From Phycisphaerales bacterium (GTDB taxonomy: Bacteria; Planctomycetota; Phycisphaerae; Phycisphaerales; UBA1924): a DNA stretch of 64,000 nt. Shown here one piece after another: positions 30,334 through 64,000 of the stretch. The stretch's first letter is position 1, and the number at the start of each line of letters is the position of its first letter. The notes beneath the pieces were generated by a model. It was not told where the DNA came from, did not search any database, and worked only from the letters and a program-made list of their open reading frames with translations. Both the position numbers and the translations under genes were made by a program. The DNA is taken from NCBI GenBank assembly GCA_046350435.1, contig JAXMAK010000003.1:611535-675534 (forward strand), written 5' to 3'.

Positions 30334-31275
30334 ATGGCCAAACGCCTCCTCCTTGGTCCGATCATGATCCTCCTTCTGGTCGGCTGCCTCTGGCTCGACC
30401 AGTGGCTTGACGGCCAACACGTCCCAGCCTCCCTCGTACCAATCTTCAGCGCGAAGGTCTTTGGCGAAGCCCGCGACACGTTCCCACCAGGCGTCATCGT
30501 TCTGCCGCTCCTCATCGCACTCGTGTGGGTCGCCGCTCGCGAACTCAGTTCACTTCTGCAATCAGAGAAGATCGCTGGCAGCAAGCGAATGCTCACAACT
30601 GCGGCGATCGCAGGCCTTCTGGTCTCGTGCCTCGTCCCGACCGACATGCCCGCAACCACCGTCGTCGGCGTGATGGGCACGGTGAGCGCGCTCATGCTCG
30701 TCATTGCGATGACGTTTTACTCTCGCCACAAAACCGTCGAAGGAGTCATCGCAGCAACTGGCGGCGTGTTGCTCAGTTACGTCTATCTCGGCATCATGGC
30801 TGGCTTCCTCCTCGCAATCCGCCGTGAACATTCTGTACTCGTCTTAGGCTGGATCGTGCTGACTACAAAATCCTGCGACATCGGCGCGTACTTCACAGGC
30901 AAGGCCATCGGCAAACACAAACTGATCCCGTGGCTCAGCCCCGGCAAAACCTGGGAAGGCCTCGCGGGTGGCGTCGTGTTTTCCGCCGCAGTCGGCGTCG
31001 CCGGCCTGTACCTCCTCGGCTCACGCCCACACGAAGGCCAACCAACCTCCGTCCCAAGTTGGTGGATCGGCGCACTCTTTGGCGCAGTCCTGGGCCTTAC
31101 AGGCCAAGCCGGCGACCTGCTCGAAAGCATCCTCAAACGCGACGCAGGAGCCAAAGACTCCGGCAAAGGCATCCCAGGCTTCGGCGGCGTCCTCGACGTC
31201 CTCGACTCCGCCCTCCTCGCCGCCCCAGTTGCGTTCTGGTGGCTGCACATGATGAAGGCGAAGGGATATTTCTGA
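30334..31275 (+). CDS. cdsA: Phosphatidate cytidylyltransferase
   Basis: Real start taken as the ATG at 30334 inside ORF 29488..31275. Signature 'SPGKTWEGLAGG...GDLLESILKRDAGAKDSGKGIPGFGGVLDVLDS'. Confidence 0.85.
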   Translation: MAKRLLLGPIMILLLVGCLWLDQWLDGQHVPASLVPIFSAKVFGEARDTFPPGVIVLPLLIALVWVAARELSSLLQSEKIAGSKRMLTTAAIAGLLVSCLVPTDMPATTVVGVMGTVSALMLVIAMTFYSRHKTVEGVIAATGGVLLSYVYLGIMAGFLLAIRREHSVLVLGWIVLTTKSCDIGAYFTGKAIGKHKLIPWLSPGKTWEGLAGGVVFSAAVGVAGLYLLGSRPHEGQPTSVPSWWIGALFGAVLGLTGQAGDLLESILKRDAGAKDSGKGIPGFGGVLDVLDSALLAAPVAFWWLHMMKAKGYF

Positions 31276-43185: not shown

Positions 43186-44841
43186 TCATCCACCGACCCC
43201 CGCCGCCACTTCTTCCCGCGCTTTCCCATTCTCTTCGCTCGGCGGCACCAACGTCATCGGCAAAATCAAACTGAACATCGACCCGCGCCCCACATCACTC
43301 ACCAACTGAATGTCGCCATTCAAAATCCCCGCAAGGTCCTTGCAAATCGCCAACCCAAGCCCCGTCCCCGTTGACTCGCGCGTGTGCCCGCCCTCGGCTT
43401 GATAAAACTTCTCAAAGATCAACTCCTGCTCTTCCTTCGGAATCCCAGGCCCGTTGTCAATCACGCTGATGCGCACTCGTTCTTCGCCGCCCGTCACTGG
43501 CAATCGCTCCGCCCGCAGCACAATCGTCGGCTCCTTGCCCGTGCGCTCCAAAGGCTGACTGAACTTCACCGCGTTGCTCAAGAAGTTGAAAATGATCTGC
43601 TGCAGCTTGCGATGATCCGTGCGAATGATCGGCACATCTTCTGACACTTCCAGTTTGGGCGAAATCCCCTTCTTGCTCGCCAAAGGCTGGATCAACCCAA
43701 GCAATCCCTCGCACGAGTCTTTGACATTCACCAATTCAATCCGCAAATCAACCTTACCCGCCTCGATCCTCGCCATTTCAAGCAGCGAATTAATCAACGC
43801 AAGCAACCCGCGCCCCGCATTCGAAATATTCTCCAAGTACCGCACACGCTTCAGCAGCGTCGCGTCCGCATCGCCCCGATCCACTTCGCTCCGCGCGATT
43901 TCCAGCAGCAACTCAGCAAATCCATTAATCGAATTCAGCGGCGTGCGCAACTCATGGCTCACATTCGCCAAAAACTCATTCTTCATCTTCGCGGCTTGAT
44001 GCAACGCCGAGTTAGCCTCTTCCAATTCATGCAGCTTCACGTCCATCGCCGCGTTGATCGCTCGCAAACGATCCTGCGACGCCTGCAAGTCCGCAACCAT
44101 CGAGTTGAACGTCTGCGACAACTCCTGAAACTCATCACCCGTCGCGATATCCGACCGGAACGCAAGGTTTCCTTCCCTCGCGCGCTCCGCCGCCGTGCGC
44201 AGTTGCTCCACAGGCTGCAAGACGAGTTTGCGTGTGATAATCCAGAACACAATCATCGCCGCGACAAGCACCGCAAGACCCGCGAGCAGCAGGTACGCGG
44301 TATTCGTCACAAGTTGCGATGTCGCGGAAATGGGCCGTCGCCTCAGTTCAATCAACCCTGCCAACGTCTTTCCGCGCACCGCCGTATTCGCATCACTGCG
44401 CGCCGCTGATCGCCACACCGCCTTCACATATCGATACTCGCGTGAAGTCCCCGCCCACGTCGCGTCCTGCCGATCCAGAAAATCCGGATGCGACTCAAAG
44501 AACGCAACACTCTCGCGCACAAAGTCGTCACTGTCTTTGCGAGCCTCGTCTAGCGTCAAGCGCCGAGCATCAATCCCCGCGCGATCATCCGCCGTCAACG
44601 TCGGCACAGGCACCGACCAGGGCCCAGGCCGCCTCGGCCCGATCAGCGACGCTTCATCCGCCGTTTCAAGTTTCTCCCAGATCGAAACCAGTTGCCGCGA
44701 AACCTCAAGTTGCCCCTCGTCAATCAGCCGCGTCATGCGAATCCACGGCGCAACCAACGCCGCGATCACCACCAGCACGATGGCAACGCCGAACAACAGC
44801 AAACACTTCCTGGCAAGCGACAAGCCTCTAAGCACAATCAA
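43186..44841 (-). CDS. Membrane sensor histidine kinase (periplasmic domain, HAMP, HisKA, HATPase)
   Basis: H-box 'HELRTPLNSINGFAELL'. HATPase 'DNGPGIPKEEQELIFEKFYQ...GTGLGLAICKDL'. Two TM helices flank a ~150-aa extracytoplasmic region. Confidence 0.85.
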   Translation of the reverse strand: MIVLRGLSLARKCLLLFGVAIVLVVIAALVAPWIRMTRLIDEGQLEVSRQLVSIWEKLETADEASLIGPRRPGPWSVPVPTLTADDRAGIDARRLTLDEARKDSDDFVRESVAFFESHPDFLDRQDATWAGTSREYRYVKAVWRSAARSDANTAVRGKTLAGLIELRRRPISATSQLVTNTAYLLLAGLAVLVAAMIVFWIITRKLVLQPVEQLRTAAERAREGNLAFRSDIATGDEFQELSQTFNSMVADLQASQDRLRAINAAMDVKLHELEEANSALHQAAKMKNEFLANVSHELRTPLNSINGFAELLLEIARSEVDRGDADATLLKRVRYLENISNAGRGLLALINSLLEMARIEAGKVDLRIELVNVKDSCEGLLGLIQPLASKKGISPKLEVSEDVPIIRTDHRKLQQIIFNFLSNAVKFSQPLERTGKEPTIVLRAERLPVTGGEERVRISVIDNGPGIPKEEQELIFEKFYQAEGGHTRESTGTGLGLAICKDLAGILNGDIQLVSDVGRGSMFSLILPMTLVPPSEENGKAREEVAAGVGG

Positions 44842-45130: not shown

Positions 45131-46966
45131 TCAATCTTTCTTGAACTTGATCTTGTCCGTACCCATCGCGCCGTGATCGCCGTCCATGCCGCCCTTCTCG
45201 GGCTTGGGTGTCTTGGCGCGCTTCGCCGGTGCTTCGCCGCCACCTGCCGGGCCTGTGCCCGTCGGGCCGCTTGCTGGGCCAAGGTCGCCGCCAGCGCCGC
45301 CGCTGGTGTCGCCCCACTGGGCGCGCTTGAGCGACAGGCCGATCTTGCGATCCGCCTTGTCCACGCGGAGGATCTTGACGTCGATCTCATCGCCAGCCTT
45401 GACCACGTCCTGCGGGTTCTCGACCTTGTGATCAGCGAGTTCGCTGATGTGCAGCAGGCCTTCGAGTTCCTGCTCGAGTTCGACGAACACGCCGAAGTTC
45501 GTGATCTTGGTGACCGTGCCGCGAACGACCATGCCGGGCTTGTAGTGCTCGGGGATGGCGCCGATCCACGGATCTTCCGTCAACTGCTTCACGCCCAGGC
45601 TGATGCGCTGCTTCTCGCGATCAACCTCGAGCACCACGCACTTGACCTTGTCACCCTTCTTGACGACTTCGTTGGGGTGCGTGACCTTCTTCGTCCACGA
45701 CATGTCGCTGACGTGCAGCAGACCATCGATGCCCGGCTCAACTTCAACGAACGCGCCGTAGTTCGCGAGGTTGCGAACGCTGCCTTCGATGACCGTGCCG
45801 GTCGGGTACTTCTCGCCCACGAGTTCCCAAGGATTGACCTCGGTCTGCTTCATGCCGAGGCTGATTTCCTGCTTGTCCTTGTTGATTTCGAGGACGACGA
45901 CATCCACTTCCTGGTTCTGCGTGACCATCTCGGATGGATGATTGACACGCCGCGTCCAGGACATTTCGGATATGTGCACCAGACCTTCGACGCCATCTTC
46001 CAACTTGACGAACGCGCCGTAGGACATGATGCTCGTGACCGCGCCGCGGATGCGGGAGCCGACCGGGAACTTCTTCTCGATTTCTTCCCACGGGCTCTGC
46101 TCGCGCTGCTTCATACCGAGCGCGATCTTTTCCTTGTCGCGATCGATGTTGAGCACCTTGACCTCAACCTTCTGCCCGATCTTGAGCAGTTCGCTGGGGT
46201 GGTTGATGCGTGACCATGACATATCGGTGATGTGCAGCAAGCCGTCGATGCCGCCAAGATCAACGAACGCGCCGAAGTCGGCGATGTTCTTGACCTCGCC
46301 GTGCACAACGTCGCCTTCCTTGAGCGTGTCGAGCAGACGCTTCTTGGCGCTGTCGCGCTCGGTCTCGATCAACTTGCGGCGGCTCACAACAATGTTGCGG
46401 CGCTCAAGGTCGATCTTGATGACTTCAGCGCGAATGCGCTTGCCCATGTAGTCCTTGACTTCGCCGGGCCGGCGCACATCCACTTGGCTCGCGGGCAGGA
46501 ACACCGGCACGCCGATATCCATCAGCAAGCCGCCCTTGATGCCCTTGGTGATCACGCCCTCGACAACATCGCCTTCCTTCGTGGAGTCAACGATGCGCTG
46601 CCAAGCCATCATGCGATCCGCGCGGCGCTTCGAAAGTTGAATGAGGCCTTCGTCGTTTTCGAGGCCTTCGAGGAGGACATCGATTTCGTCGCCCATCGCG
46701 GGCAGGACGCCTTCGAACTCTTCCTTGGGAATCAGCCCTTCGCTCTTGAGACCGACTTCGACCACGACGTCGTCGCCGGCGAAACCGATCACCTTGCCCT
46801 TGATGAGCTTGCCAGGTGTCAGATCAACCTTGCGATCCGTCAGGAGCCCGTCCATGTACTTGTTGCCAGGCGCCTTCGCAGTCGCGAGCCCGGACATCAT
46901 CTTGTCCAGCTCATTCTCAAAACCCTTGTCCAATCCAAGCGAAGCAATCAGCGATTCATCGATCAT
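45131..46966 (-). CDS. rpsA: 30S ribosomal protein S1
   Basis: 611 aa. Six S1 OB-fold repeats (recurrent 'G.V......GAFV.L..G..GL.HISE'). Gly-rich C-terminal tail. Confidence 0.9.
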   Translation of the reverse strand: MIDESLIASLGLDKGFENELDKMMSGLATAKAPGNKYMDGLLTDRKVDLTPGKLIKGKVIGFAGDDVVVEVGLKSEGLIPKEEFEGVLPAMGDEIDVLLEGLENDEGLIQLSKRRADRMMAWQRIVDSTKEGDVVEGVITKGIKGGLLMDIGVPVFLPASQVDVRRPGEVKDYMGKRIRAEVIKIDLERRNIVVSRRKLIETERDSAKKRLLDTLKEGDVVHGEVKNIADFGAFVDLGGIDGLLHITDMSWSRINHPSELLKIGQKVEVKVLNIDRDKEKIALGMKQREQSPWEEIEKKFPVGSRIRGAVTSIMSYGAFVKLEDGVEGLVHISEMSWTRRVNHPSEMVTQNQEVDVVVLEINKDKQEISLGMKQTEVNPWELVGEKYPTGTVIEGSVRNLANYGAFVEVEPGIDGLLHVSDMSWTKKVTHPNEVVKKGDKVKCVVLEVDREKQRISLGVKQLTEDPWIGAIPEHYKPGMVVRGTVTKITNFGVFVELEQELEGLLHISELADHKVENPQDVVKAGDEIDVKILRVDKADRKIGLSLKRAQWGDTSGGAGGDLGPASGPTGTGPAGGGEAPAKRAKTPKPEKGGMDGDHGAMGTDKIKFKKD

Positions 46967-46993
46967 AACAAGAAACTTTCCGGGACGAACTTT

Positions 46994-47069
46994 TCACCGC
47001 AAAGACGCAAAGGACACAAAGAAAACAAAATCTGGTTTTGTCTTTGTGCACGTCGTGTCTTTGTGGTGA
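46994..47069. repeat. Octad-built palindromic element (tight hairpin) just upstream of rpsA
   Basis: Left 'tcaccgcaaagacgcaaaggacacaaagaaaac', 8-nt loop, right 'gttttgtctttgtgcacgtcgtgtctttgtggtga'. Confidence 0.75.
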
Positions 47070-47409
47070 TATTCCTCCGCCCCAAACGCTCGGCACCACG
47101 GTGGGATGACCCGCGGCGTCCTCACGCCGTCAGTCTCGAAAAGAGCTTGAAGCCCTTGTGCTCCATCCCCACTGGAGCACCGCGAGACCCGCCCTGAAAA
47201 CCCAAGGCCGGTACAAAGAACAGACTGACCGCCCGGCGTCAACGACACCAGCCACGGCCCAGCCATCCCGCTGGGAAACTAGTTTAGGCAGCACCCGAGC
47301 AGAGCAATTTTCTGGGAAGTGCGCGCACAAACTCGGGCGAAAAACGGGACTGAAGATTGCGCACAGCGATTTGAAAAGTCCAGCGGTGTGCGCGCGGGTG
47401 TGGTTGATC

Positions 47410-47514
47410 GGGGGCGGGGCGGGGGCGATGGGAGGAATGGGGTTTGTTTTTTTTGGGACTTGTGGGGTGCGACCATGAGTGCGCGCACTTGTGTGGGCGG
47501 GGGTTGGGAGGGGG
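47410..47514 (+). other. Cluster of G-quadruplex-compatible G-run motifs
   Basis: 'gggggcggggcgggggcgatggg' at 47410..47432 and 'gggcgggggttgggaggggg' at 47495..47514. Each has four or more G-runs of 3 or more nt with short loops. Confidence 0.6.
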
Positions 47515-47554
47515 TTGACTTTTTGGAGGAGGGATTTTGGGGGTGGGGGTTGGA

Positions 47555-47610
47555 GAGGATTTATCGCGGAGGTCGCGGAGAGCGCGGAGGGTTTGGAGAG
47601 AGGGAGAGGA
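47555..47610. repeat. Octad/nonamer purine-arm tandem (CGCGGAGRN)n, solo
   Basis: 'ggatttatcg cggaggt cgcggagag cgcggaggg tttggagag agggagagg'. Its reverse complement resembles the 45021..45048 arm. Confidence 0.65.
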
Positions 47611-47846
47611 GTTGTTGAGTAAGTCGTGGGTGCGCTGGGAGAAGGGAATGGGGCCGAAGGGTCGGATGCGGCGGATGGGTTTGATGGGGTAGGTCGGTGA
47701 AGTAGATGAAGGCAACGAGGCATCAGAGCGGCATCGAGGCATCGAGAAGGTGGTTGATGTGTGTGGCGTGAAGCACAGGCAGCGGCAAAGCCGGCAGCAT
47801 GTGGCAAGAGCTTGATAGCTCTGCCACATGCCGACCTGTCACCATC

Positions 47847-48980
47847 CTAAACGCCGACGTTCAATGCTTCGAGTATTTTAATTGCTTCGTCAACTTTTCC
47901 GACTACTTTGCACGGATATTTCAACTGAAGTGATCCAATATTTCCGGATATTGCTGCCGCAAGCTTACGTTCGGTAAAAAAATAATCGCAATAAGGAAGA
48001 GCGATCGAAGCGTGATTCGCATCATACACGTCACCGGCATGGAATGACTGTTTTCCAAACAATTTGATGGCAAAAAGCGCACACGGAATAAAGAGACTCG
48101 GCACTCGCTCCGCAGCTGGAACATCTGAAAGCAATTCGACAATATAGTTATAATACATTTTCCGACGTGATGACTCTGAGCCTCCCCAAAGCGAACGAAA
48201 CGGGTCTGTTTGCATTACATGATCTACCGCCAGCCAGCCTATCTCGCTGCGTGATCGCAGGCACGACTTAATGTGACTAACGAGAATATCTTCATACTTC
48301 ACACTTGCAGGCATTTTCTTGGATTTCTCTGTGGCATCGGCACAAAGCTCATTGTCGTACATTTGTTCAGCCTGGGTTGCAAGATGACTGATGCTGACAA
48401 CAGAGCTCTCGAGCGACTCCCGGGCTGACTCGAATTGAAAATGCGAGATTTGCACCTCATGTTTTTCAGGGTTTTCGTCGTGCAGTTCCTTGCCCGGGAG
48501 CCGCAATCCACTCATCCACGCCATCTTGGTAAAGACCAAATCACGGGCCTGCTGACCGTCCGTGCGAATTCGCAACCGTTCGCAAACATACGACAAAGTT
48601 TCTATCAGGCGTATAGCGTTGGGGTTATGAAAAGAAACTCCACAACTAAGATCGTCGATGAGTCTGGCGGTATGTCGTTGCATGCGAATATCTGGCTGCT
48701 TCATTATTTCACATGCAATATGTATATTCGCCGGGCAGACGATTACTTTGCGCCTCTTCAAAGCAAGCAATAGTTCCAATACCCGATCATATTTATCTAC
48801 TGGTGTGTTTTCGTAAACACTTTTTCTGAAATTAATCCAGTACATCATGTCCAAGTAAACGATCTTTCTTGATTTGATGCTCTTGGACAATGACAAGCTG
48901 CTACTTCTTACCACAAACGAAGCCGGTAAAAGTAATGCTGGCTTGTCAATATTGCTACGTTTCTTTTTGGGCTTCTTCAT
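47847..48980 (-). CDS. Hypothetical protein, low-GC orphan with PIN-like motif placement
   Basis: 377-aa ORF in a strongly AT-richer segment (47 G+C in the 120 nt at 47881..48000, by hand count). An ORF this long is unlikely by chance at that composition. N-terminal 'IVYLDMMYW' and C-terminal 'DANHASIALPYCDYFFTE' resemble the acidic-residue positions of PIN-like nucleases. That assignment is weak and unverified. Confidence 0.6.
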   Translation of the reverse strand: MKKPKKKRSNIDKPALLLPASFVVRSSSLSLSKSIKSRKIVYLDMMYWINFRKSVYENTPVDKYDRVLELLLALKRRKVIVCPANIHIACEIMKQPDIRMQRHTARLIDDLSCGVSFHNPNAIRLIETLSYVCERLRIRTDGQQARDLVFTKMAWMSGLRLPGKELHDENPEKHEVQISHFQFESARESLESSVVSISHLATQAEQMYDNELCADATEKSKKMPASVKYEDILVSHIKSCLRSRSEIGWLAVDHVMQTDPFRSLWGGSESSRRKMYYNYIVELLSDVPAAERVPSLFIPCALFAIKLFGKQSFHAGDVYDANHASIALPYCDYFFTERKLAAAISGNIGSLQLKYPCKVVGKVDEAIKILEALNVGV

Positions 48981-48992
48981 CGCACGAAGCTT

Positions 48993-50252
48993 TTACAAAT
49001 TCCCTCTCCGCTCCTGTTCCAACTCCAGCGCCTCAAACAGTGCCTTGAAGTTGCCTTTGCCGAATGACTGGCTGCCTCGGCGGCAGATGATTTCGAAGAA
49101 GAGGGTTGGGCGGTCTTGGAGCGGTTTGGTGAAGAGTTGGAGTAAGTAGCCTTCGTCGTCGGCGTCGACGAGGATGCCGAGGTCGCGCACCTTCTTGTGG
49201 TCTTCTTTCACGGCTTGGTGGCCGTGGCTGGTGAGCATGGTGTTGACGCGGTCCCAGACTTTTTCGTAGTAGGCGTCGGGGAGAGTGAGGAAGTCGACGC
49301 CGCGGGCTCGCAACGCCGCGATCGAATGCAACTCGTCATCCGTGCGGAGGGCGAGGTGTTGGACGCCTGGGGTGTTGCAGTGCCAGTCGAGGTATTCCTG
49401 TACTTGGCTCTTGCGTTTGCCTGGGGCGGGTTCGTTGATGGGGATTTTGATGAGGCCTTGGCCGCTGCTCATGACTTTGGACATGAGGGCGGAGTATTCG
49501 GTGGCGATGTCCTTGTCGTCGAAGTGCTTGAACATCTTGAATTCCATGACGTCTTCATAGAACTTCACCCAGTAGTTCATTTTGCCGAGTTCGACGTTGC
49601 CGACGAGGTGGTCGGTGTACTTGAGGCCGCAGGGGTTTTTGCGGTTGTAGTCGTTGATGGCGAGGACGGAAGAGACGCCTGACTGCGGGCCGCAGCCTGT
49701 GGCTGGTGCGCACATATTCGAGCCGTCGATTTTGCGGAAGCGGGGTTTGAAGGTGGCGCCTTGTTTGACTTTGGTGAGGTCGTATGCGCCGGTACGGGAG
49801 ACGAAGGTGTGATTGACGCGGCCGAAGGTTTTGATGCCAGCCATGGTGACGGAGCCGTGTTCGTCTTTGAAGACGCGGGGTTCGTAGGCGGATTGTGCGC
49901 CGTTGCGGATAGCTTTTTCCCAGGCTTTTTCGGCGTCGAAGACGGTGAAGGCAACGTCTTTGACGCCGTCGCCGTACATCGCGACTTCCATGTTGGCGGG
50001 GTGCTCGGGAGCGAGGCCGCTGGTCAAGATGAAGCGGATGTTGCCTTGCGTGAGGAGGTAGTGTGCGGCGTCGCGGCAGCCTGTGGTGAGGTCGGAGACT
50101 TGTTCGATTTGGAAGCCGAAGCAGTGTGCGTAGAAGAACGCGGCTTGCTTGGCGTTACCTACGTAGAACTGGACGTGGTCGACGTCGATGAGGTGGAGCG
50201 GGTCGTTGGAGAAGGAGGGGGCGGAGGTGGGTTGGGTTGAGAGGGTGGTCAT
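48993..50252 (-). CDS. hppD: 4-hydroxyphenylpyruvate dioxygenase
   Basis: 419 aa. 'GDGVKDVAF', 'VQHLALRTDD' and the C-terminal 'FFEIICRRGSQSFGKGNFKALFEALELEQERRGNL' are hallmark HPPD motifs. Confidence 0.9.
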   Translation of the reverse strand: MTTLSTQPTSAPSFSNDPLHLIDVDHVQFYVGNAKQAAFFYAHCFGFQIEQVSDLTTGCRDAAHYLLTQGNIRFILTSGLAPEHPANMEVAMYGDGVKDVAFTVFDAEKAWEKAIRNGAQSAYEPRVFKDEHGSVTMAGIKTFGRVNHTFVSRTGAYDLTKVKQGATFKPRFRKIDGSNMCAPATGCGPQSGVSSVLAINDYNRKNPCGLKYTDHLVGNVELGKMNYWVKFYEDVMEFKMFKHFDDKDIATEYSALMSKVMSSGQGLIKIPINEPAPGKRKSQVQEYLDWHCNTPGVQHLALRTDDELHSIAALRARGVDFLTLPDAYYEKVWDRVNTMLTSHGHQAVKEDHKKVRDLGILVDADDEGYLLQLFTKPLQDRPTLFFEIICRRGSQSFGKGNFKALFEALELEQERRGNL

Positions 50253-50356
50253 GGGGAACTCCGGGGGATTTGGGCGGAACGGGGGATGGTAAGGGGGATT
50301 TGAACAATCAGCGCGCCTCGATGCACCGATTGCCGAACCGCGAAACCACTCGTATT

Positions 50357-50983
50357 TCAGGGCTTGCGAGTACGGGAGCGGGGCTGTTTCTTGCGTTGCG
50401 ACTGCTTCTTATTCTTCTCTGCTTTTTCCTGGGTATCGAAGTACTCGTCCGCGGTGGGGTCTGCGAACTCAAAGACAATGGACTTGCTGTCAAGGTTGAA
50501 TATGTACGTGGCGGCTGCATCAAAGTCCGCTTGCGGGGGCACGTTGATCACGAGAAAGGCTGGGTTGGCGCCTTCGTACGTGCAGCCCATGTCGAGAAGC
50601 GGCTTGAGAATCTTGCTGGAAATCGGCTTGCCGGCTTCGTGCGACATGCGCAATGTGCGATTGCCTGATTTCTTGACGACGCGGATGAACTCAAGCACGC
50701 CATCATCAAACTTGTCGCGGGCTTCGACGACGTCTTGAAACGAAACGCCGTAGGCGAAGAAGGGTGAATTCTCGAGCCTGTACTTATGCAGACCCACAGG
50801 TGTTGCCCACAACGACTCAGGAAGGTCTGCGTCGTCAGTTTCGTTGCGAAGAACGACCTTGACCATTGAGCCATTGCCGGTGTCTACTTTCGCAGCCATG
50901 ATCTTTGCATTTGGTGGCTTTTTAGAGCGAGATGATGCCATGCGAATTCTCCTTTCAACTACTTTATCGAGTAAGGAATGCAA
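50357..50983 (-). CDS. DUF4265-like hypothetical protein
   Basis: 'ESLWATPVGLHKYRLENSPFFAYGVSFQDVVEA' matches my recollection of the DUF4265 N-terminal signature. The start is uncertain (alternative ATGs at 50941 and 50899). Lys/Arg-rich tail. Confidence 0.5.
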   Translation of the reverse strand: MHSLLDKVVERRIRMASSRSKKPPNAKIMAAKVDTGNGSMVKVVLRNETDDADLPESLWATPVGLHKYRLENSPFFAYGVSFQDVVEARDKFDDGVLEFIRVVKKSGNRTLRMSHEAGKPISSKILKPLLDMGCTYEGANPAFLVINVPPQADFDAAATYIFNLDSKSIVFEFADPTADEYFDTQEKAEKNKKQSQRKKQPRSRTRKP

Positions 50984-51051
50984 TCGCAGAAGCCCGGCCC
51001 GACGCCTTTCGCTCTGGGCGAGAGCGGCTGGTTGTGGCCGTACATTTGTGG

Positions 51052-51927
51052 ATGCGAGTTTTGGTGACTGGTGCGAATGGGTTTATTGGGGGGCGGGTGG
51101 TGGGTGCGCTTGGGGGGGGCGGGCATGAGGTTGTGGAGGGGACTCGTGGCGCGGGGTTGGATTTGCGGGATTTATTGGGGGTTTTTGGGTTTTTTGAGCG
51201 GGCGGGGAAGGTTGATGTTGTCATTCATGCGGCGGCGATGCGGGATCCGGCGACTTGTGAGAAGCAGCGTGAGGAAGCGGTGGTTGTCAATTTTTTGGCG
51301 ACGAGAGAGATTGCGAAGTGGTGTGAGAAGAACGGAGTGCGGTTGATTTTTTTGTCGACGGATCAGGTGTTTGATGGTGTCCCCCCGAGCAAGATGGGGA
51401 TGTATGTGGAGAGTGATGCTCGGCGGCCTGTGAATCACTATGGGGTGACGAAGGCGTTGGCGGAGGATGTAGTTTTTGAGACTGGCGGGATGGTGGCGCG
51501 GGTGGGGCTCACGATGGGGGTGAGTCGGGAGGGGAACAGGTCGCCCAATGAGTTTGTGGTGAATGGGCTGCGGGCGGGGCAGGCGGTGACGCTATTTGAG
51601 AATGAGTTTCGGTCGCCAATTTTGGTGGAGGATGTGGCGGCGGCGTTGGTGGGGTTGCTGGGGAGCGAAGAGCGGTGCGTGCATGTGGCGGGGCCGGGGC
51701 GGGTCAGCCGGGTTGAGATGGGGTTGGCGTTGGCGAGGGCCTTTGGGCTGCGGAGCGAACTTTGTGTGGCTTCGCGGCATAGTGCGGAGGCGACGGGGGT
51801 GTATCGGCCCTTGGACTGCTCCATGGACACCACGCTGTTGGCACAAGTGTTGCGTAGACAAGGGATTAGGTTGCCTCTTGGAATGAATGAGGCTGCTCTT
51901 GTGCTGGCGAACGCTTGTTCACGGTGA
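51052..51927 (+). CDS. NAD(P)-dependent sugar epimerase/reductase (RmlD/dTDP-4-dehydrorhamnose reductase-like)
   Basis: ORF 50932..51927 trimmed to the ATG at 51052, giving 'MRVLVTGANGFIGGRV' (Rossmann GxxGxxG). 'YGVTK' is the catalytic YxxxK. Confidence 0.75.
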   Translation: MRVLVTGANGFIGGRVVGALGGGGHEVVEGTRGAGLDLRDLLGVFGFFERAGKVDVVIHAAAMRDPATCEKQREEAVVVNFLATREIAKWCEKNGVRLIFLSTDQVFDGVPPSKMGMYVESDARRPVNHYGVTKALAEDVVFETGGMVARVGLTMGVSREGNRSPNEFVVNGLRAGQAVTLFENEFRSPILVEDVAAALVGLLGSEERCVHVAGPGRVSRVEMGLALARAFGLRSELCVASRHSAEATGVYRPLDCSMDTTLLAQVLRRQGIRLPLGMNEAALVLANACSR

Positions 51928-52094
51928 AACGGTTGCTGGGTATTGGTGTGGCTGGGGGAATGGGCCGATGTAGAAGTAGTATTTGAGAGATTTACGGCCC
52001 CCCACTGTGCTTTCCCCGACGGGTCGAGCAGGCGGCGGCGCATAAGTTGTTGTACAATTGGAACTTGGGGGGACGCCGGGGGTTGGGCTTGTGT

Positions 52095-53129
52095 ATGACG
52101 AGGATGGTGGAACAAAGTTCTGGGGTTGGAAACGGCGCGGCAGTTTCGCGCGCGGTGTTTTCGTCTTCATTTGGAATGCGGAGTTTGCGGAGCGTGCTGC
52201 TGCTGGCGGGTGGTGTGCGGCGCGGGCGTATGGGGCAGGCGTTGGGGCGGCCTTTGGTCGATTTGCCTGTTCCCAAGCATGGGTCGATGCTGGGGGCTTG
52301 GAGTGAGCAGGTTTCGGGGTTGGCGAAAGTCATCGGCGGACCGATTCAGGTTCGCGCGATGGTGAGTCAGCAGTTGCAATTGCCTCGCGCAGTGAAACCC
52401 TGCGCGGGTGTTGAGTTGATTGCGGAATATGACAAGGGTGAGTTCCGCGGCACGGGTGGGTTGCTGCGCGATGTGACGGATGAATATGAGGATGATGACT
52501 TCATTCTCGCGGTGACTGCGAACCAGGTGTTGCTTACGAACTTGAGTGAGTTGTTTGAAGTGCTGCGAAGTACGCAGGCGAAAGCGGGCGCCGATGTCGT
52601 GCTGCTGTCGGAGCCTGATGGTTCTGCGAGCGGGTTTATTCTCATTCGCTGCGCGTGCTTGCGGGGGATTCGCGGCAATGGATACTTGGATTTCAAAGAG
52701 CAGAGTCTGCCGCAGATTGCGAAGGAATTTGTGGTGAAGGTTGCGAAGTCGCCTCGGCGCGCTGCGCTGCCCGTGCGGACGTTGGAGCAGTACATCAGGA
52801 CGCTGCGTGTTTTGCATACTGGCGATTTGGAGTTGGAAGTTGAGCCGCGGATTGATCCTTATGAAGAGGAGTGGACGGCGGCGTTTGCGATGGTTGATGA
52901 GACGGCGAGCGTTGCGAAGGGCGCGATCGTGCATGACTCGGTGGTGATGCGGAACGCGAAGGTTGGAGCGGGGGCTGTGTTGGTGCGTTCGCTGGTGTGC
53001 GAGGGCGCGGTTGTGGAGGCGGGGCGTGTGGTGTATGACTCGGTGATTGCTTCAGAGTCGAACGAGTCCTTTAACCAGACGCGTGCGCCGGAACTGCTGC
53101 GTGCGGATGAGAGCAAGGAGGCGCGGTGA
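52095..53129 (+). CDS. Divergent nucleotidyltransferase-like protein with C-terminal left-handed beta-helix-like repeats
   Basis: 'VLLLAGGVRRGRMGQALGRPLVDLPV' loosely resembles the sugar-1-phosphate NTP-transferase N-terminus, but the canonical GxGTRL is not intact. The C-terminal 'GAIVHDSVVMRNAKVGAGAVLVRSLVCEGAVVEAGRVV' is a hexapeptide-like repeat. The start is uncertain (52047, 52095 or 52176). Confidence 0.5.
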   Translation: MTRMVEQSSGVGNGAAVSRAVFSSSFGMRSLRSVLLLAGGVRRGRMGQALGRPLVDLPVPKHGSMLGAWSEQVSGLAKVIGGPIQVRAMVSQQLQLPRAVKPCAGVELIAEYDKGEFRGTGGLLRDVTDEYEDDDFILAVTANQVLLTNLSELFEVLRSTQAKAGADVVLLSEPDGSASGFILIRCACLRGIRGNGYLDFKEQSLPQIAKEFVVKVAKSPRRAALPVRTLEQYIRTLRVLHTGDLELEVEPRIDPYEEEWTAAFAMVDETASVAKGAIVHDSVVMRNAKVGAGAVLVRSLVCEGAVVEAGRVVYDSVIASESNESFNQTRAPELLRADESKEAR

Positions 53130-53998
53130 GGACCATCGGTTACAGCAAGTGGGAAGCTTGGCACGGGATAGCGGCCAGTGCGCTTGGTGCGATTGCGATT
53201 TTCGTTTCGCTACCCACATGGAAAGACATTTTGTATATTGCTGAGCACGACGAGGATCAGAGCCACATTTTTCTTGTGCCGATCGTTGCGTTGTGGATGC
53301 TGTGGGCGCGTCGCAAGAGACTGCGAATTTGCCCGCCTGGCGGGACGTTTATTGGGCCGCTGATTGCTGCGACAGGCGCGGTGTTTTCGTATGTTGGATA
53401 CGACAACGGCGTGCAGTCTGTGTGGCATCTTGGGGCGGTGCTGCTATTCCTGGGAGGGATATTGACGGCGCTCGGAAAGAACGTGCTGTTTCAGTTCTTG
53501 CCGGCGTTCGCGGTGCTGTTGTTCCTTGTGCCGATTCCGGGTGCGCTGCGCTCGATGATTTCGCTGCCTTTGCAGACTGCAACTGCGACGGCGACTGAAG
53601 CGATCCTGGACTTGTTTGGCGCGCAACTGACGCGGTCGGGCAATGTGCTGACGATTAACGGGATGGATGTTGCGGTCGCGGAAGCGTGCAACGGCATGCG
53701 CATGGTGTTTGCGTTGCTGCTCGTGGCGTATGCGTTCGCGTTCAGCATCCCGCTGCGGAACACGACGCGAATTTTCGTGCTGCTGCTGAGCCCAGTGTGC
53801 GCGTTGTTCTGCAACGTGATTCGACTGATTCCGACGACGCTGATCTATGGGCACATGGATCGCACGACGGGCGACAACTTCCATGACTGGTCGGGGTGGG
53901 TGATGCTGCCGATCGCCTTCTTCTTGCTCATGGGTGTGATTCGGGCGCTGAAGTGGGCGTTGTTGCCTGTGATGAGATTTAACTTGGCGTATCAGTGA
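53126..53998 (+). CDS. Exosortase (EpsH/Xrt family transpeptidase)
   Basis: The GTG start overlaps the upstream stop. 'EDQSHIFLVPIVALWMLWARRKRL', the catalytic-Cys motif 'VAEACNGMRMV', 'CNVIRL' (Arg) and 'FHDWSGW' (His) occur in the order expected for exosortases. About 8 TM helices. Confidence 0.8.
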   Translation: MRTIGYSKWEAWHGIAASALGAIAIFVSLPTWKDILYIAEHDEDQSHIFLVPIVALWMLWARRKRLRICPPGGTFIGPLIAATGAVFSYVGYDNGVQSVWHLGAVLLFLGGILTALGKNVLFQFLPAFAVLLFLVPIPGALRSMISLPLQTATATATEAILDLFGAQLTRSGNVLTINGMDVAVAEACNGMRMVFALLLVAYAFAFSIPLRNTTRIFVLLLSPVCALFCNVIRLIPTTLIYGHMDRTTGDNFHDWSGWVMLPIAFFLLMGVIRALKWALLPVMRFNLAYQ

Positions 53999-54027
53999 TT
54001 TGCGTTGCGGGGGTGGTGGGTAGTTCG

Positions 54028-54137
54028 GATTTAACACAGAGAGCACGGAGAACACAGAGAGAAGAGAAGAGATGTGTTTTGAAAGTCATAGTTTTTCTTT
54101 GTGCTCTCTGCGATCTCTGTGTTGAGTGAATTGAATC
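54028..54137. repeat. Octad-built palindromic element
   Basis: Left 'ggatttaacacagagagcacggagaacacagagagaagagaag'. Right 'ttctttgtgctctctgcgatctctgtgttgagtgaattgaatc'. Lies between the exosortase and epsI. Confidence 0.75.
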
Positions 54138-54179
54138 GGGCGTTGATTGACAACGGCGTTTTTTGCGAAAGGTGGATGA

Positions 54180-54953
54180 GTGCGTGGTATATCGCTGACA
54201 TTGACCGTGTGCGTGCTCAGCGCATTCTGGTTTGCGACGAAGGATCTGCCTACGGCGGATTCGGCGGGGCCTTTCCATGCCAAAGTTGGCAAGGAGATTC
54301 TTGATTTGCCCACGACGCTGGGGAACTGGACGCTTTCAGAAAAGGTCGAGCCTCCTCCAGCGGCGCAGCAGTTGTTGCGGCCCAATGCGCTCACGGCGCG
54401 GATCATGCGAAACAGCGCGACGGGGAAGCAGGCGACGTTGATTGTCGTGCAATGCCGGGACGCGCGTGATATGGCTGGGCACTATCCGCCCAATTGCTAT
54501 CCGGCCCATGGCTGGCAGTGGCGAAACGAACCTTTGCCTGCGGAGAGCATTAGTATCACTTCCGGTGTCACCACTGGGGAGAGCGATATCGCTGCGCACG
54601 CGAGTGACGGCGGGACGAATGCCCGAGAACCTCTGCGAATTCCGTATCAGGTGTACGACTTCAAGCGGGTTGGAGGGGTTATTCGGGAAAAGCGGATTCG
54701 CATCTTCTCGTTCTTCGCTATACCTGGGCGGGGTCTGGTACCTGACATCAAGTCGGTGAAACAGGCCGCCGAAGATTATCGGGTACGTCCTTACGGGGCG
54801 GCACAGATACAGGTGATAGTGGATGGGTACGAACAGGATTCAGACTCGAAGGTGATCTTCGAGGATGTGATGAAGGAATGTGGATCGCTGCTGCATGTTT
54901 TGTCTGACGATCCATTGAGTACGCAGGTTTTGCAATCAAAGAGCACGCCATGA
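54180..54953 (+). CDS. EpsI-family exosortase-associated protein
   Basis: Signal anchor, then 'LGNWTLSEKVEPP...TLIVVQCRDARDMAGHYPPNCYPAHGWQW', the EpsI-type signature. Lies immediately after the exosortase. Confidence 0.7.
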   Translation: MRGISLTLTVCVLSAFWFATKDLPTADSAGPFHAKVGKEILDLPTTLGNWTLSEKVEPPPAAQQLLRPNALTARIMRNSATGKQATLIVVQCRDARDMAGHYPPNCYPAHGWQWRNEPLPAESISITSGVTTGESDIAAHASDGGTNAREPLRIPYQVYDFKRVGGVIREKRIRIFSFFAIPGRGLVPDIKSVKQAAEDYRVRPYGAAQIQVIVDGYEQDSDSKVIFEDVMKECGSLLHVLSDDPLSTQVLQSKSTP

Positions 54954-57262
54954 CGACGCTGAACGCACACAACGCCGACCTCAACGCACTGCCGCCAGGG
55001 ATGGGTGGTGGCATGGTGCCTTCGTATGGCGGGCCGGACCTTGGCGGCGCACCTCACCAGCAGGTGAACGTATTCAAGGTGCTGCACAATCTGTTTCGTG
55101 GGCGGTATCTTTTGACAATCGCGCTGGCGGGGACGGGCGCGATCATTGGTTTGCTGTTGGGGTGGCTGTCGCGTCAACCTGAGTACGCGAGCAAGACGAC
55201 GATTCGCATTCAACCGCTGCAACAGAGCGTCACACGCACGGGCATGGAAGTGACGCCCATGTTCGAGTCGTTTGTGAATACGCAGATGAACTTGATTCTG
55301 CAGGATCGCGTGATTCGCGCGGCGATGTCGCAGCCTGACTGGATCAAACTTGGCAAACCCAACACGCCCGAGATGGAAAAGGCGTATCGCGATTCGATCT
55401 CAGTGCGTTTGCCCAGCAGGACGTCGCTGGAAATCATCGAAGTCACTTGCACGGACGTGAATCCGGAAGCGGCGCACGTTGGTGTGACGCAGTTGTGCAA
55501 GAGCTATCTGGAAATCTTCGGCGACGGGTCGGTGGACCAGTTGGCGAAGATCAAGGATCAGATTCGCCAAGACAAGCGTCGGCAGATTGAGCAGAAGATC
55601 GACGACATTCAGAAGCGGCTCACGCAGCTTGCGCAGGATGTGGGTACGGATGATCCAACGGACATCGCGCGGTTCTTGACTGCGAAGCGATTGGATATTC
55701 AGTCGCAGATCGCGGCGATTGACCAGCAGCTCACGTCTCGCGGGTGGGCTCCGCCCAGCGAAGCGAAGGAAAAGGCGCCTGATGAAGATCTGACGAAAAC
55801 GGCGGCTCCTGTGAAGGATCCCAAGGACATGACGTTGGAGGAGATCGCCGCGGTTGATCAGGCGATGAGCGCGTTGATTGCGAACATGAAGGATGCGCGG
55901 TCGCGGAAGATGATGGCGATGGCGAGCGGCTTGGGCGAGAAGCACATGACCGTGAAGAAGATTCAGAATGAGATTGATGCGGTGATGAATCAGATGGATC
56001 GTCGCCGTGAAGAATGGCTGGGCAACAAGCCGGCGAGCATTGACACGATGCCTGCGGGGCAGGCGGCGTTTGGTGCGATCACGACTGAGTCGTTGTTGTC
56101 GCAGCGTGAGAGCCTGAAGCGTCAGTTCCGCGATACGTTCTCTGAGAGCAGCGATCTTGCGGTCAAGATTCAGGAAATGCGCGTGCTCAAGCAGAGTGAG
56201 TTTAACGAGCAGGCGAACTTGGATGAGCTTCGCAAGACGATTGAAAAGGATCAGTTGGATACGGACCTGCGTCGTCAGGCGGGCACGATTACGTTGCTGC
56301 AGCCTGAGCGGCCCCCCACTTCTCCGAGCAATGACAGCCGAATCAAGTTTGCGGCGATCTTCGGGTTCTTTGGTGCGTTCTTGCCGATCGCGGTCATGGG
56401 GTTGTATGGGTTGTTTGATCGCCGGTATCGGTACTCGGATGAAGCGATTGAGGAAGGGCCGACGAACACGACGCTGCTGGGCATTCTGCCTCGGCTTCCA
56501 ACCGACTTGAGCGACGTTGAGCAGGCATCGGCGGCGGCGCACTGCGTGCACCAGATTCGTGCGCTCGTGCAAATCGGTGGCAAGCATCGTCGCGTGTATG
56601 CGGTCACGAGCTCAAATCCGGGCGACGGCAAGACGAGCATGACGCTTGCGCTTGGGTTGTCGTTTGCGGGCAGCGGCAGCAAGACGTTGATTGTGGACCT
56701 GGACTTGATTGGTCAGGGCTTGTCGCGCAGCATGCGCATGCGTGAGCAGTCTTCGCTATTTACGGAATTGGTGGATGGCGACATCAAGGCTCGCATCAAG
56801 CCCACGACTTCGCACAATCTGTGGTTGCTCCCGACGGGTGTTGAGGACGATCATCGCACGGCGAATCGGCTGGCGGAGCCTCAGATCACGCGACTGATCG
56901 AGACGGTGCGTGATGACTATGACATTGTGCTGATTGATACGGGCCCGGTCTTGGGCTCGATTGAGGCTCACCTGACTTGTGCGCAGGCGGATGGCGTGAT
57001 TCTGGTGGTTGGCGCTGGGCGTGCCCGCGGGCAGGTCAAGGCGGCGGTCGATCAGCTCCGCCGAGTCAATGCGAAGTTGCTGGGCTTGGTGTTCAACCTC
57101 GCTCAGTCCAAGGACTTCCGCACGAGCGCGGCGAGCCAGAGTTTCCGCAGCATCAGGCCTGATGGGCCTGCTCCGGAGCCGGTCAATCCGGCGGACTATC
57201 CGGAGATGGAGCCTTTGCCTCGCGTGGTGGCTTTGGACACGAAGCCCACGACGCGTCGATAG
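54950..57262 (+). CDS. Polysaccharide chain-length determinant (Wzz/GumC-like) fused to a BY-kinase-type P-loop ATPase
   Basis: ATGA overlap with the epsI stop. Two TM helices flank a long coiled-coil periplasmic region. Walker A 'SSNPGDGKTSMT', A' 'IVLIDTGPV', B 'ADGVILVV'. Confidence 0.85.
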   Translation: MTTLNAHNADLNALPPGMGGGMVPSYGGPDLGGAPHQQVNVFKVLHNLFRGRYLLTIALAGTGAIIGLLLGWLSRQPEYASKTTIRIQPLQQSVTRTGMEVTPMFESFVNTQMNLILQDRVIRAAMSQPDWIKLGKPNTPEMEKAYRDSISVRLPSRTSLEIIEVTCTDVNPEAAHVGVTQLCKSYLEIFGDGSVDQLAKIKDQIRQDKRRQIEQKIDDIQKRLTQLAQDVGTDDPTDIARFLTAKRLDIQSQIAAIDQQLTSRGWAPPSEAKEKAPDEDLTKTAAPVKDPKDMTLEEIAAVDQAMSALIANMKDARSRKMMAMASGLGEKHMTVKKIQNEIDAVMNQMDRRREEWLGNKPASIDTMPAGQAAFGAITTESLLSQRESLKRQFRDTFSESSDLAVKIQEMRVLKQSEFNEQANLDELRKTIEKDQLDTDLRRQAGTITLLQPERPPTSPSNDSRIKFAAIFGFFGAFLPIAVMGLYGLFDRRYRYSDEAIEEGPTNTTLLGILPRLPTDLSDVEQASAAAHCVHQIRALVQIGGKHRRVYAVTSSNPGDGKTSMTLALGLSFAGSGSKTLIVDLDLIGQGLSRSMRMREQSSLFTELVDGDIKARIKPTTSHNLWLLPTGVEDDHRTANRLAEPQITRLIETVRDDYDIVLIDTGPVLGSIEAHLTCAQADGVILVVGAGRARGQVKAAVDQLRRVNAKLLGLVFNLAQSKDFRTSAASQSFRSIRPDGPAPEPVNPADYPEMEPLPRVVALDTKPTTRR

Positions 57263-57284
57263 AGAGGAACGGGTTGGAGGTTCC

Positions 57285-57435
57285 TTTCAGCACAGAGACA
57301 CAGAGTTCAGGAGGGGGAAGAGAAGATGATGGGATGATGGGATGATGAGTAGTTGAGAAAAGTACGACGATCCTGACTTCATCACATCGCCATCTCATTC
57401 GCCTCTTGATCTCAGAGTCTCTGTGCTGAAAAAAG
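57285..57435. repeat. Octad-family variant: 14-bp perfect inverted repeat TTTCAGCACAGAGA / TCTCTGTGCTGAAA
   Basis: 57285..57298 and 57417..57430 are perfect reverse complements. The right arm context 57397..57435 matches 41112..41148. Confidence 0.75.
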
Positions 57436-57505
57436 AAGTTGTGGTGTGACTGATGGATCGCGGATCGATTGGAAGTGTCGAGCCGCCGTTTGAATTTCAA
57501 CGAGA

Positions 57506-59005
57506 TTGGCAGACACGGAAGTCATGACGACGCTTGCGGCACATGGTGCGGACTTGAGTGGTGAGGCGAAGCCTGCACCGGTGATCCATACGCATCATCC
57601 GGCCAACGCCCCCACTGTCTGGGGTTTGGATTGGGCGGATCTGCATGCTCGGTATTGGGCGGCGCGGGGTGTGCAGTTGGTTCGGCCCGGCGAGCGCACG
57701 CCATTGGTCGCGCATGCTGAACTCTACATGCTGCTGGATCATGATTCGCTTGCGCTGTTTCGGCTGGCGTCGATTCTGGATGATGCGAGTTGGATCAATC
57801 CGGACTTGATTGTCGTGCGTGTGATGGACAAGGCCAAGCAGCCTTACGCCGAGCGGATCGTGTCGGATGAGCAGGGGACGTTCAAGGGCTATCAACGGAT
57901 TTATAACGCTTCGCAGATTCGGCTGGGGCGCGTTGTGCTGACGACGGATCGCGCGTTAGCTGCGGTGTGGCAGGAAGCGCCGGAAGCCGCGACTGGGTGG
58001 CAGCAATTGCGGAAACTCACGCGTCGACAGGATCGCTTTCCGGTGAAGTTGCCTGGCAAGTTGTTTGACATGAGCAATCCGGATGACGTGGCGCGATTCG
58101 GGCATGATCTGGTGCAGGAGTGGCAGCGGCCTGACGCGACGATTTCGCGGATTCGACAGGTTGGCGAGGGCATTTGGGCGGACAAGGACGCGAATGTCAC
58201 GGTCGGGCCTGGTGTGCGCGGGCCTTTGTGGATTGGCGCGGGAAGAGAACTGACGAGTTCGAGTTCTGCGGTGGGTCCGGCGGTGCTGTGGGACAAAGCT
58301 GAGAAGCGGCCCAAGGAAGATGACATTGAATGGCTGGACGTGGAGACGCTTTCGGCACCCGCGCCCAAGTCGCTGCTCAACAAGTCGGGCACGACGGCGA
58401 AGAAGCGGCCATTCAAGCGTGCGTTTGATATCGCGTTCGCGAGTGCGGCGATTTTGGCGACGGCACCGGTGTATCCGCTTGTGACGCTGGCGATTTTGAT
58501 CGAGGATGGGCGACCCATTTTCTTCCGGCACCGGCGCGAGACGCGCGGCGGGCGAGAATTCGGGTGTCTTAAGTTCCGCAGCATGCGCAAGGACAGCGAA
58601 GAGATCAAAGCGAAGTTGATGGCGCAGAATCAGGCGGACGGGCCGCAGTTTTTTATCAAGAACGATCCGCGGCTGACGAAGGTCGGCGCGTTCATTCGTG
58701 AATTTCAGATTGATGAACTGCCTCAGTTGTTCAATATCTTGAAGGGCGACATGAGCGTCGTCGGACCTCGCCCCAGCCCGTTCAAAGAGAATCAATATTG
58801 CCCGCCCTGGCGCGAGGCTCGGCTGTCGGTGCGCCCCGGGCTCACGGGGCTGTGGCAGATTTCGCGCACTCGTGAAGAAGGAAACGACTTTCAGGAGTGG
58901 ATCAAGTACGACATTCGATATGTGGAGAAGCAGTCTTTCTGGATGGACATCTGGATCATCTGGAGGACGGTGATGATGCTGGTGCGAAGGGCGACGAAGT
59001 CGTAG
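57506..59005 (+). CDS. Bacterial sugar transferase (polyprenyl-phosphate hexose-1-phosphate transferase) with a ~300-aa unassigned N-terminal domain
   Basis: The C-terminal ~200 aa carry 'KRAFDIAFAS...LIEDGRPIFFRHRRETRGGREFGCLKFRSM...DPRLTKVGAFIREFQIDELPQLFNILKGDMSVVGPRP', hallmark of the WbaP/EpsB family. The N-terminal 300 aa are soluble and unrecognised. Confidence 0.85.
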   Translation: MADTEVMTTLAAHGADLSGEAKPAPVIHTHHPANAPTVWGLDWADLHARYWAARGVQLVRPGERTPLVAHAELYMLLDHDSLALFRLASILDDASWINPDLIVVRVMDKAKQPYAERIVSDEQGTFKGYQRIYNASQIRLGRVVLTTDRALAAVWQEAPEAATGWQQLRKLTRRQDRFPVKLPGKLFDMSNPDDVARFGHDLVQEWQRPDATISRIRQVGEGIWADKDANVTVGPGVRGPLWIGAGRELTSSSSAVGPAVLWDKAEKRPKEDDIEWLDVETLSAPAPKSLLNKSGTTAKKRPFKRAFDIAFASAAILATAPVYPLVTLAILIEDGRPIFFRHRRETRGGREFGCLKFRSMRKDSEEIKAKLMAQNQADGPQFFIKNDPRLTKVGAFIREFQIDELPQLFNILKGDMSVVGPRPSPFKENQYCPPWREARLSVRPGLTGLWQISRTREEGNDFQEWIKYDIRYVEKQSFWMDIWIIWRTVMMLVRRATKS

Positions 59006-59008
59006 GAC

Positions 59009-59090
59009 AAGGCATTGGGGATTGGGCATTGGGCATTAGAAAAGATGCCAGCCTTGTTTGCCAATGCCTAATGCCCAATCCCCAATGCCT
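59009..59090. repeat. Heptad-built palindromic element (GGCATTG family), copy 4
   Basis: Left arm 59009..59038 'aaggcattggggattgggcattgggcattag'. Right arm 59063..59090 'aatgcctaatgcccaatccccaatgcct', identical to 20496..20523. Lies between the sugar transferase and TPR genes. Confidence 0.85.
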
Positions 59091-59104
59091 CTTGGATTTT
59101 TACT

Positions 59105-63784: not shown

Positions 63785-64000
63785 CATCGCGTGTCGCGCA
63801 TCGCCTTAACATCACTTTAGCATTTTGTTTGCCCCATAACATCGCTTTGCATGCACTTTTTGACCCATCTAGGGCATCAAAATGGTCGATTTGCGTCTTA
63901 TAATCGTTAGACGCCCTATAAAGACGGCGACAGCGAGTCGCTGCAGCCACACCCGCTACAGTTGCGCAACCCCTTGTCAAATTCAAGTTTGCGACACTTG

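Follow-up and report, generated by a model that had tools for sequence, protein, structure and literature searches.

An abrupt switch in strand composition lies just upstream of rpsA, the gene for 30S ribosomal protein S1, in a 64,000-nt stretch of a Phycisphaerales metagenome-assembled genome (MAG) (GenBank assembly GCA_046350435.1, contig JAXMAK010000003.1, forward-strand positions 611,535 to 675,534), which was analysed in full and is hereafter called the window. Within ~100 bp the base compositions of the two strands are swapped; the swap is genuine and sharp, and does not depend on gene strand. We put the probability at about 55 % that the site is a junction where two skew domains meet, in a slot occupied by variable accessory genes. 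By skew domains we mean chromosome stretches whose neutral sites were shaped by oppositely directed replication; two such stretches would have been joined here, between hppD and rpsA, through rearrangement, insertion or recombinational import. The join would then not be a DnaA-type origin, and the skew of one arm would mismatch the direction in which that arm is replicated at present. A junction was judged more likely than an origin because no further mark of an origin was detected at the site and because similar switches proved to be common in relatives.

Cumulative GC skew across the window reached its minimum at 47,269 and cumulative keto skew at 47,382, whilst the best two-segment changepoint fell at 47,272, with a mean G-C per base of -0.069 to the left and +0.118 to the right. 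The changepoint had a support interval of 47,255-47,367 in GC skew and of 47,301-47,398 in keto skew, so that skew minima and support intervals together place it at 47255-47398. When 1-kb blocks were permuted 20,000 times, the observed two-segment statistic was never reached (p < 5e-5). At a resolution of 2 kb, plus-strand GC skew was near zero in the first 8 kb of the window (-0.07 to +0.04), about -0.1 to -0.27 between 8 and 46 kb, and +0.09 to +0.40 between 47 and 64 kb. The hand counts on which the original prediction of this switch was based were reproduced exactly (A48 C78 G51 T23 for 47081-47280; A22 C23 G104 T51 for 47381-47580), and the flip that it had described at third codon positions was likewise confirmed, with GC skew at these positions (GC3 skew) changing sign for genes of both strands. 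Read on the plus strand, GC3 skew to the left of the switch averaged -0.30 in plus-strand genes and -0.09 in minus-strand genes, reaching -0.51 in the minus-strand kinase gene at 43186-44841; to the right, it averaged +0.44 in plus-strand genes and was +0.65 in the minus-strand hppD. A regression of per-gene plus-strand GC3 skew on a side term and a coding-strand term gave -0.21/-0.22 for the left arm and +0.52/+0.54 for the right (F = 141-162). Because the flip affects genes of both strands, the switch is real and not an artefact of gene orientation.

The position of the switch had been given as ~47.29 kb. An abrupt step is indeed present there, but its apparent precision is set by two non-neutral elements, namely the conserved 5' leader of rpsA (46967-47290, minus strand) and a G-rich tract (47381-47700, plus strand). 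From neutral sites alone the switch could lie anywhere within 45.1-49.0 kb, a range made wide by the codon-biased rpsA and a skewless, low-GC orphan gene, both of which are uninformative. The third position of rpsA (45131-46966, minus strand; MFO0858109.1, U0640_12220; six S1 domains, E = 1.5e-105) is codon-biased, with sense C3 exceeding G3 in the window and in every relative checked, and its GC3 skew is for that reason uninformative on polarity. The extreme local contrast thus appears to arise from a leader that is G-rich in its sense, on the minus strand, standing beside a G-rich tract on the plus strand, and not to record the point at which forks start. The leader explains the base composition seen in the left half of the interval but not the switch at domain scale. 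A patch of reversed skew at 29040-29700, named beforehand as a caveat, is present, but is a coding effect of the minus-strand gene at 28879-29988, which encodes an Ala/Gly/Thr/Ser-rich protein. The product, of 369 aa, has a signal peptide and carries a PEP-CTERM sorting motif at its C terminus; the gene overlaps the spurious 5' part of a long plus-strand open reading frame (ORF) at 29488-31275.

Bacterial origins of replication (oriC) comprise a cluster of DnaA boxes and a DNA-unwinding element, usually beside dnaA or dnaN and at the minimum of cumulative GC skew. The signature had been called origin-like, and its polarity, from C-rich to G-rich on the plus strand, is that of an origin; the other testable marks were not found. 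No 9-mer resembling the DnaA box TTATCCACA with up to one mismatch was present in 46.9-47.9 kb, in keeping with the earlier caveat that no convincing boxes were to be seen, and the whole window held two such sites against 6.2 expected by chance. At two mismatches there was one site in the spacer and no enrichment, and a scan that included the high-GC variant TTGTCCACA returned none between 45,357 and 50,803. Pfam searches of all called genes together with motif scans identified no dnaA, dnaN, parB or gid gene in the 64 kb, as the original prediction had also noted for dnaA and dnaN, and no linkage to dnaA, dnaN, parAB/parS, gidAB or rpmH-rnpA was seen in the window or in any related locus. The GC content of the 880-bp spacer was 52-62 % per 200 nt. 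It held a single AT-rich 30-mer (47018), which forms the centre of a hairpin within the 5' untranslated region (UTR) of rpsA, and no clear unwinding element was evident in the spacer outside this hairpin, although no dedicated predictor was run. Neither was the position of the switch conserved, as the closest rpsA relative (L081) lacks the switch, the closest hppD relative (L164) lacks the junction, and the unique part of the spacer has no homologue. The expected co-orientation of rpsA with a leftward fork was observed, the gene lying on the minus strand immediately left of the switch, but co-orientation of genes is weak evidence for an origin in this phylum because gene-strand bias in Planctomycetes is near 50 % (PMC11040001). 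In the related loci that we examined, only 55 % of coding bases were on the G-rich strand, and of 42 loci with strong skew, 15 had rpsA on the C-rich strand.

Comparison with relatives drew on at least 160 rpsA-anchored loci, all from Phycisphaerales. Among the matches listed, the closest relative of rpsA (L081/L058, 92 % amino acid identity) shares only rpsA and its leader with the window; a different gene on the same strand lies upstream of rpsA, and there is no switch. The closest relative of hppD (L164, 93 % amino acid and 89.5 % nucleotide identity) retains the adjacency of hppD and an epimerase gene. Past the hppD stop codon it carries genes for an AAA_15/AAA_21 ATPase, a STAS protein, a 1220-aa protein and TatA, and neither the orphan gene nor rpsA. 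Synteny alignment showed the junction of rpsA and hppD to be a breakpoint with respect to the nearest relative on each side. An inversion breakpoint, offered in the original prediction as the alternative to an origin, fits better than an origin, in that relatives on both sides break synteny between hppD and rpsA and that polarity switches of either sign are frequent in the order. No partner switch was present in the window.

The frequency of such switches was estimated with a strand-aware GC3 model from 114 unique related loci (numbered within L001-L169; ~2.2 Mb). Under strict criteria, six negative-to-positive switches (that of the window included) and four positive-to-negative switches were detected, and under relaxed criteria eight to nine and eight, respectively, corresponding to ~7 polarity switches per Mb with both polarities taken together. 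Given one origin per ~4 Mb, this rate means that only ~1 in 10 origin-type switches could be an origin. A clear negative-to-positive switch at about 13.8 kb was found in L169, a locus anchored on hppD and not picked via rpsA. Further switches were noted in L009 (9.6-12.4 kb), L099 (6.7-6.9 kb), L040 (15.4-17 kb) and L033 (about 4.4 kb). No dnaA, parB or DnaA-box cluster occurred in the related switch regions, and a comparison of the switch regions of the window, L009, L099, L040 and L043 yielded no convincing shared motif. Polarity in the neighbourhood of rpsA also flipped between relatives with 95.5 % identical rpsA (L004, +0.35; L006, -0.23). These data imply skew domains of roughly 100-150 kb, or else many MAG chimeras. 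An origin ancestrally linked to rpsA was entertained when four negative-to-positive switches and one positive-to-negative switch were counted near this gene. The idea was dropped because the two polarities became about equally numerous once the coding-strand term was fixed, and because switch positions were spread over the loci and the hppD-anchored L169 also switches.

Inversion junctions and other skew-inverting rearrangements appear as local reversals of GC skew in polarised chromosomes, and such reversals also flag misassemblies. The window resembles them in showing a flip independent of gene strand at a synteny breakpoint with accessory DNA, and its relatives show flips of both signs. Several observations nevertheless weigh against a junction of skew domains. 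Unlike typical inversion junctions, the site has no insertion sequence (IS) element or inverted repeats, and no integrase, tRNA gene or flanking or long repeat was found at it either. A partner breakpoint would have to be outside the window, as no opposite-sign switch of comparable size was found in the 64 kb, though one may lie beyond; the arms thus extend for at least 47 kb and at least 17 kb without a second, closing switch. Close to the switch, the apparent leading strand of each arm is rich in G+T, and to a similar degree (-0.22 and +0.30), as would be seen at a true origin. Relatives in this order lose synteny after a few genes even when their proteins are 87-93 % identical, and with breakpoints so dense the coincidence of a synteny break with the switch carries little weight. 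Some switches in relatives, moreover, occur in collinear DNA. Within the pairs L099/L093 and L043/L027, which are collinear and show no rearrangement nearby, polarity differs on just one side; a GluDH orthologue (80 % amino acid identity) with collinear flanks has a skew of -0.13 in L099 and +0.48 in L093, and a single high-scoring segment pair spans the switch in L043/L027. Rearrangement is therefore not the sole source of switches. Finally, the five switches of largest amplitude (0.64-0.91) were all of origin type, the largest of terminus type reaching 0.49. Such an asymmetry would be expected from sharp origins and diffuse termini, whereas inversion junctions should be symmetric, albeit that the sample is small.

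Several of these observations would be accounted for if the chromosome began its replication here, at its origin or at some fixed initiation site, with leading strands diverging from 47.26-47.40 kb and with DnaA acting through non-canonical sites or with another mechanism of opening; we regard this as possible but unlikely. As in oriC, a sharp step of the correct polarity and of high amplitude (GC3 skew -0.21 to +0.52) coincides with a long intergenic region, the 880-bp spacer being among the longest non-coding stretches of the window, and G+T-rich apparent leading strands diverge from it. The highly expressed rpsA points away from the site and, together with 80 % of the right-arm coding sequence, is co-oriented with the diverging forks. 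The GTGCGCGCAC-type palindromes form a locally unique cluster exactly on the changepoint, all 11 G-quadruplex motifs are on the apparent leading strand of their arm, and the skew of hppD and the differences between collinear orthologues suggest that skew tracks the recent direction of replication. The amplitude asymmetry described above points the same way. In contrast to oriC, however, the region lacks a DnaA-box cluster, and the sole AT-rich piece of the spacer is placed inside the rpsA 5' UTR. No origin-linked gene was found in the 47 kb on the left or the 17 kb on the right, the nearest relatives do not share the position, and a gene of probable foreign origin sits within the candidate region. 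Origin-type switches are ~10 times too frequent in related contigs for a single oriC, and the sharpness of the step is produced by the conserved leader and the G-rich tract (skew 0.66). That the site is instead one of several fixed initiation sites without DnaA boxes, on a multi-origin Phycisphaerales chromosome, we consider highly improbable. Skew domains of ~100-150 kb, sharp origin-type and weaker terminus-type switches and polarity differences in collinear DNA would fit such a chromosome, and the palindrome cluster and quadruplex-prone tract would then belong to an initiation zone. Archaea with several origins per chromosome, such as Sulfolobus, have origins partly derived from integrated elements, and the relatives of the window similarly show many sharp origin-type and weaker terminus-type switches, with foreign genes beside the switch. 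The likeness is one of resemblance only, since neither an initiator gene (Orc/Cdc6-, Rep- or DnaA-like) nor origin repeats could be identified, and to our knowledge multiple origins have not been established for any bacterium of this group.

Two further explanations were considered, and both seem distinctly unlikely. In one, the contig is an assembly artefact that joins two regions of the same or a closely related population in or beside the conserved rpsA, and no real chromosome would carry the switch. The sequence is from a MAG, a join within 45.1-47.0 kb would go unseen because rpsA ranks among the most conserved long genes and is uninformative in skew, and other MAG and metagenome contigs have unusually many switches, of either sign, close to rpsA. 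On the other hand, the source contig is 749 kb long, the leader runs unbroken into the unique spacer with no repeat at the junction, and the hppD-anchored switch of L169 is away from rpsA. Tetranucleotide usage of the right arm also fell within the range of the left arm, leaving the arms indistinguishable; these distances gave no support to a chimera between organisms, which was rejected. In the other, homologous or illegitimate recombination brought in the right arm (hppD and an exosortase/PEP-CTERM polysaccharide locus) from the genome of a related member of the Phycisphaerales, and the arm has kept the skew of its donor, the switch marking the end of the imported tract. Polysaccharide loci, the orphan gene and a DUF4265 gene are typical variable cargo, the one-sided opposite polarity of L099 and L093 is the pattern expected from a donor in opposite orientation, and GC3 skew is stronger to the right (+0.52) than to the left (-0.21). 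The adjacency of hppD and the epimerase gene is, however, native and conserved in the closest relative, and neither the GC content nor the tetranucleotide usage of the right arm is atypical. Signs of an island boundary were confined to the 1.1-kb orphan gene, the only atypical piece, with no integrase, tRNA gene or direct repeats, and a tRNA/tmRNA scan of the window returned none. We retain the junction of two skew domains as the preferred reading, because the switch is the only origin mark and has many counterparts in relatives.

The slot at which these domains would meet lies downstream of hppD and is a variable position, with different accessory genes in different genomes. In the window it is occupied by the orphan gene (47847-48980, minus strand; MFO0858110.1, U0640_12225), which encodes 377 aa. 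Its GC content was 0.39-0.54 per 200 nt, against ~0.58 for the window, with a GC3 of 0.47 and no skew. The protein had no Pfam, NCBIfam or PADLOC match and only three distant homologues among 5.8 billion proteins, one of which (P0004) is encoded among CBASS, SIR2-STAND, HigB and integrase genes in a defence island. The orphan gene was probably acquired horizontally. At the same position L164 has the AAA_15/AAA_21 ATPase gene (L164 1546-4017), also of low GC3 (0.43). Orphan genes beside switches in different loci had no homology to each other. The adjoining hppD, for 4-hydroxyphenylpyruvate dioxygenase (48993-50252, minus strand; TIGR01263, E = 8.5e-112), is native, with hundreds of Phycisphaerales orthologues at 80-93 % identity, and is the first informative gene of the right domain. 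A strong skew intrinsic to hppD was considered and rejected, as the skew of this gene in relatives follows the local polarity.

Beyond these genes, the left domain (1-45130) has a C/A-rich plus strand, so that its minus strand looks like the leading strand, and carries housekeeping genes that include a cox operon, ACIII-like genes, ctaA, coaE, cdsA and two histidine kinase genes. The remainder of the right domain (50253-64000) has a G/T-rich plus strand, with a GC skew of +0.13 to +0.40 and a GC3 skew of +0.33 to +0.67. Past hppD, Pfam and NCBIfam annotation identified a DUF4265 gene (50357-50983), a ~600-bp insertion relative to L164, followed by an exosortase/PEP-CTERM polysaccharide locus on the plus strand (50932-63784). 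This locus encodes an RmlD-like epimerase, exosortase EpsH, a DUF3485/EpsI-like protein, a P-loop-bearing chain-length determinant, a sugar transferase and a 1559-aa PrsT-like TPR protein.

The left third of the spacer is the conserved rpsA leader of ~320 nt, which could be aligned to the rpsA upstream regions of the six closest relatives (L058/L081, L001, L004, L006, L045 and L088), with one 43-nt stretch 98 % identical in L081. At its 5' end lies a -10-like element, CCTAAACT (47283-47290); further conserved features are a GACGGCG...CGCGGGT hairpin region and CGGAAAGT immediately before the ATG. RNAalifold predicted 50 pairs, 14 of them with compensatory changes, from seven leader sequences, which are too few and too closely related for covariation to be judged firmly. 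A sigma-70 promoter scan of the spacer found none, and Rfam searches, with the whole window at the gathering threshold and 46.9-47.9 kb in E-value mode, returned no match. It is a candidate clade-specific ribosomal-protein leader in Phycisphaerales. Like ribosomal-protein leaders such as the autoregulated rpsA leader of Escherichia coli, it is conserved, apparently structured and directly upstream of rpsA; unlike them, it matches no Rfam family and is known only from ~7 close Phycisphaerales sequences, and its regulation by S1 is assumed. Inserted in the leader is an imperfect palindrome of 86 nt (46990-47075, minus strand) that is absent from the six aligned relatives and has no second copy in the window or related loci. 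It contains five CAAAGAC-like 7-mers and an AT-rich centre, lies 28-110 nt upstream of the rpsA start codon, and as RNA folds into a hairpin of -32.7 kcal/mol (z = -5.5). It could affect the translation of S1, or could be a small inserted element. In many other Phycisphaerales, rpsA is directly preceded by a conserved gene of ~120 aa that matches no Pfam family (for example at 6381-6749 in L099, with homologues in L093, L042, L059, L034, L031, L001 and others); it is absent from this position in the window.

The remainder of the spacer is unique to this genome, the G-rich tract included, with no homology to relatives. A motif scan located six clustered WGTGCGC half-sites at 47317-47490, right on the changepoint. 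Six of the 31 matches in the window thus fall inside 172 bp, the densest cluster in ~2.5 Mb of related loci, where the runner-up has four. The cluster comprises two perfect GTGCGCGCAC palindromes (47319 and 47479), which are the only exact copies of this 10-mer in the window, together with TGTGCGCGCG (47387) and TTGCGCACA (47358). The first GTGCGCGCAC copy is ~30-45 nt upstream of the -10-like element of the leader, a position that would suit an operator. The DNA fold of 47280-47500 was not significant (z = -1.2). The GTGCGC motifs were also considered as dif-like sites and discarded, although no dif scan was run; the polarity of the switch is wrong for dif, and the sites do not match the arm-spacer-arm layout of E. 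coli dif. The adjacent G-rich tract (G167 C34 T74 A45) has a skew of 0.66 over 320 nt, above that of other intergenic DNA of the right arm (0.02-0.45), and its peak 200-nt skew of 0.74 is the most extreme of the window. Three canonical G-quadruplex motifs are found within it (47410, 47495 and 47628). Two ORFs in the spacer (225 and 181 aa) were rejected as genes, being low-complexity, Pro-rich and probably spurious. A strong hairpin at 47790-47840 on the minus strand (inverted repeat I8; -32.8 kcal/mol, z = -5.7) follows just past the stop codon of the orphan gene and is likely the end of its transcript.

We know of no characterised replication origin in Planctomycetota, and a literature search on oriC or skew in Planctomycetes found nothing specific. 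Were an origin that lacks DnaA boxes to be confirmed, it would be informative. For this order the present results are foremost a caution, in that a sharp origin-type skew switch is insufficient to call an origin, because each megabase holds several such switches and genes show hardly any strand bias. The more interesting lead is the patchwork of strongly skewed domains, which means that polarity-breaking rearrangements are very frequent in these genomes, that MAG chimeras are frequent, or that replication in Phycisphaerales is unusual.

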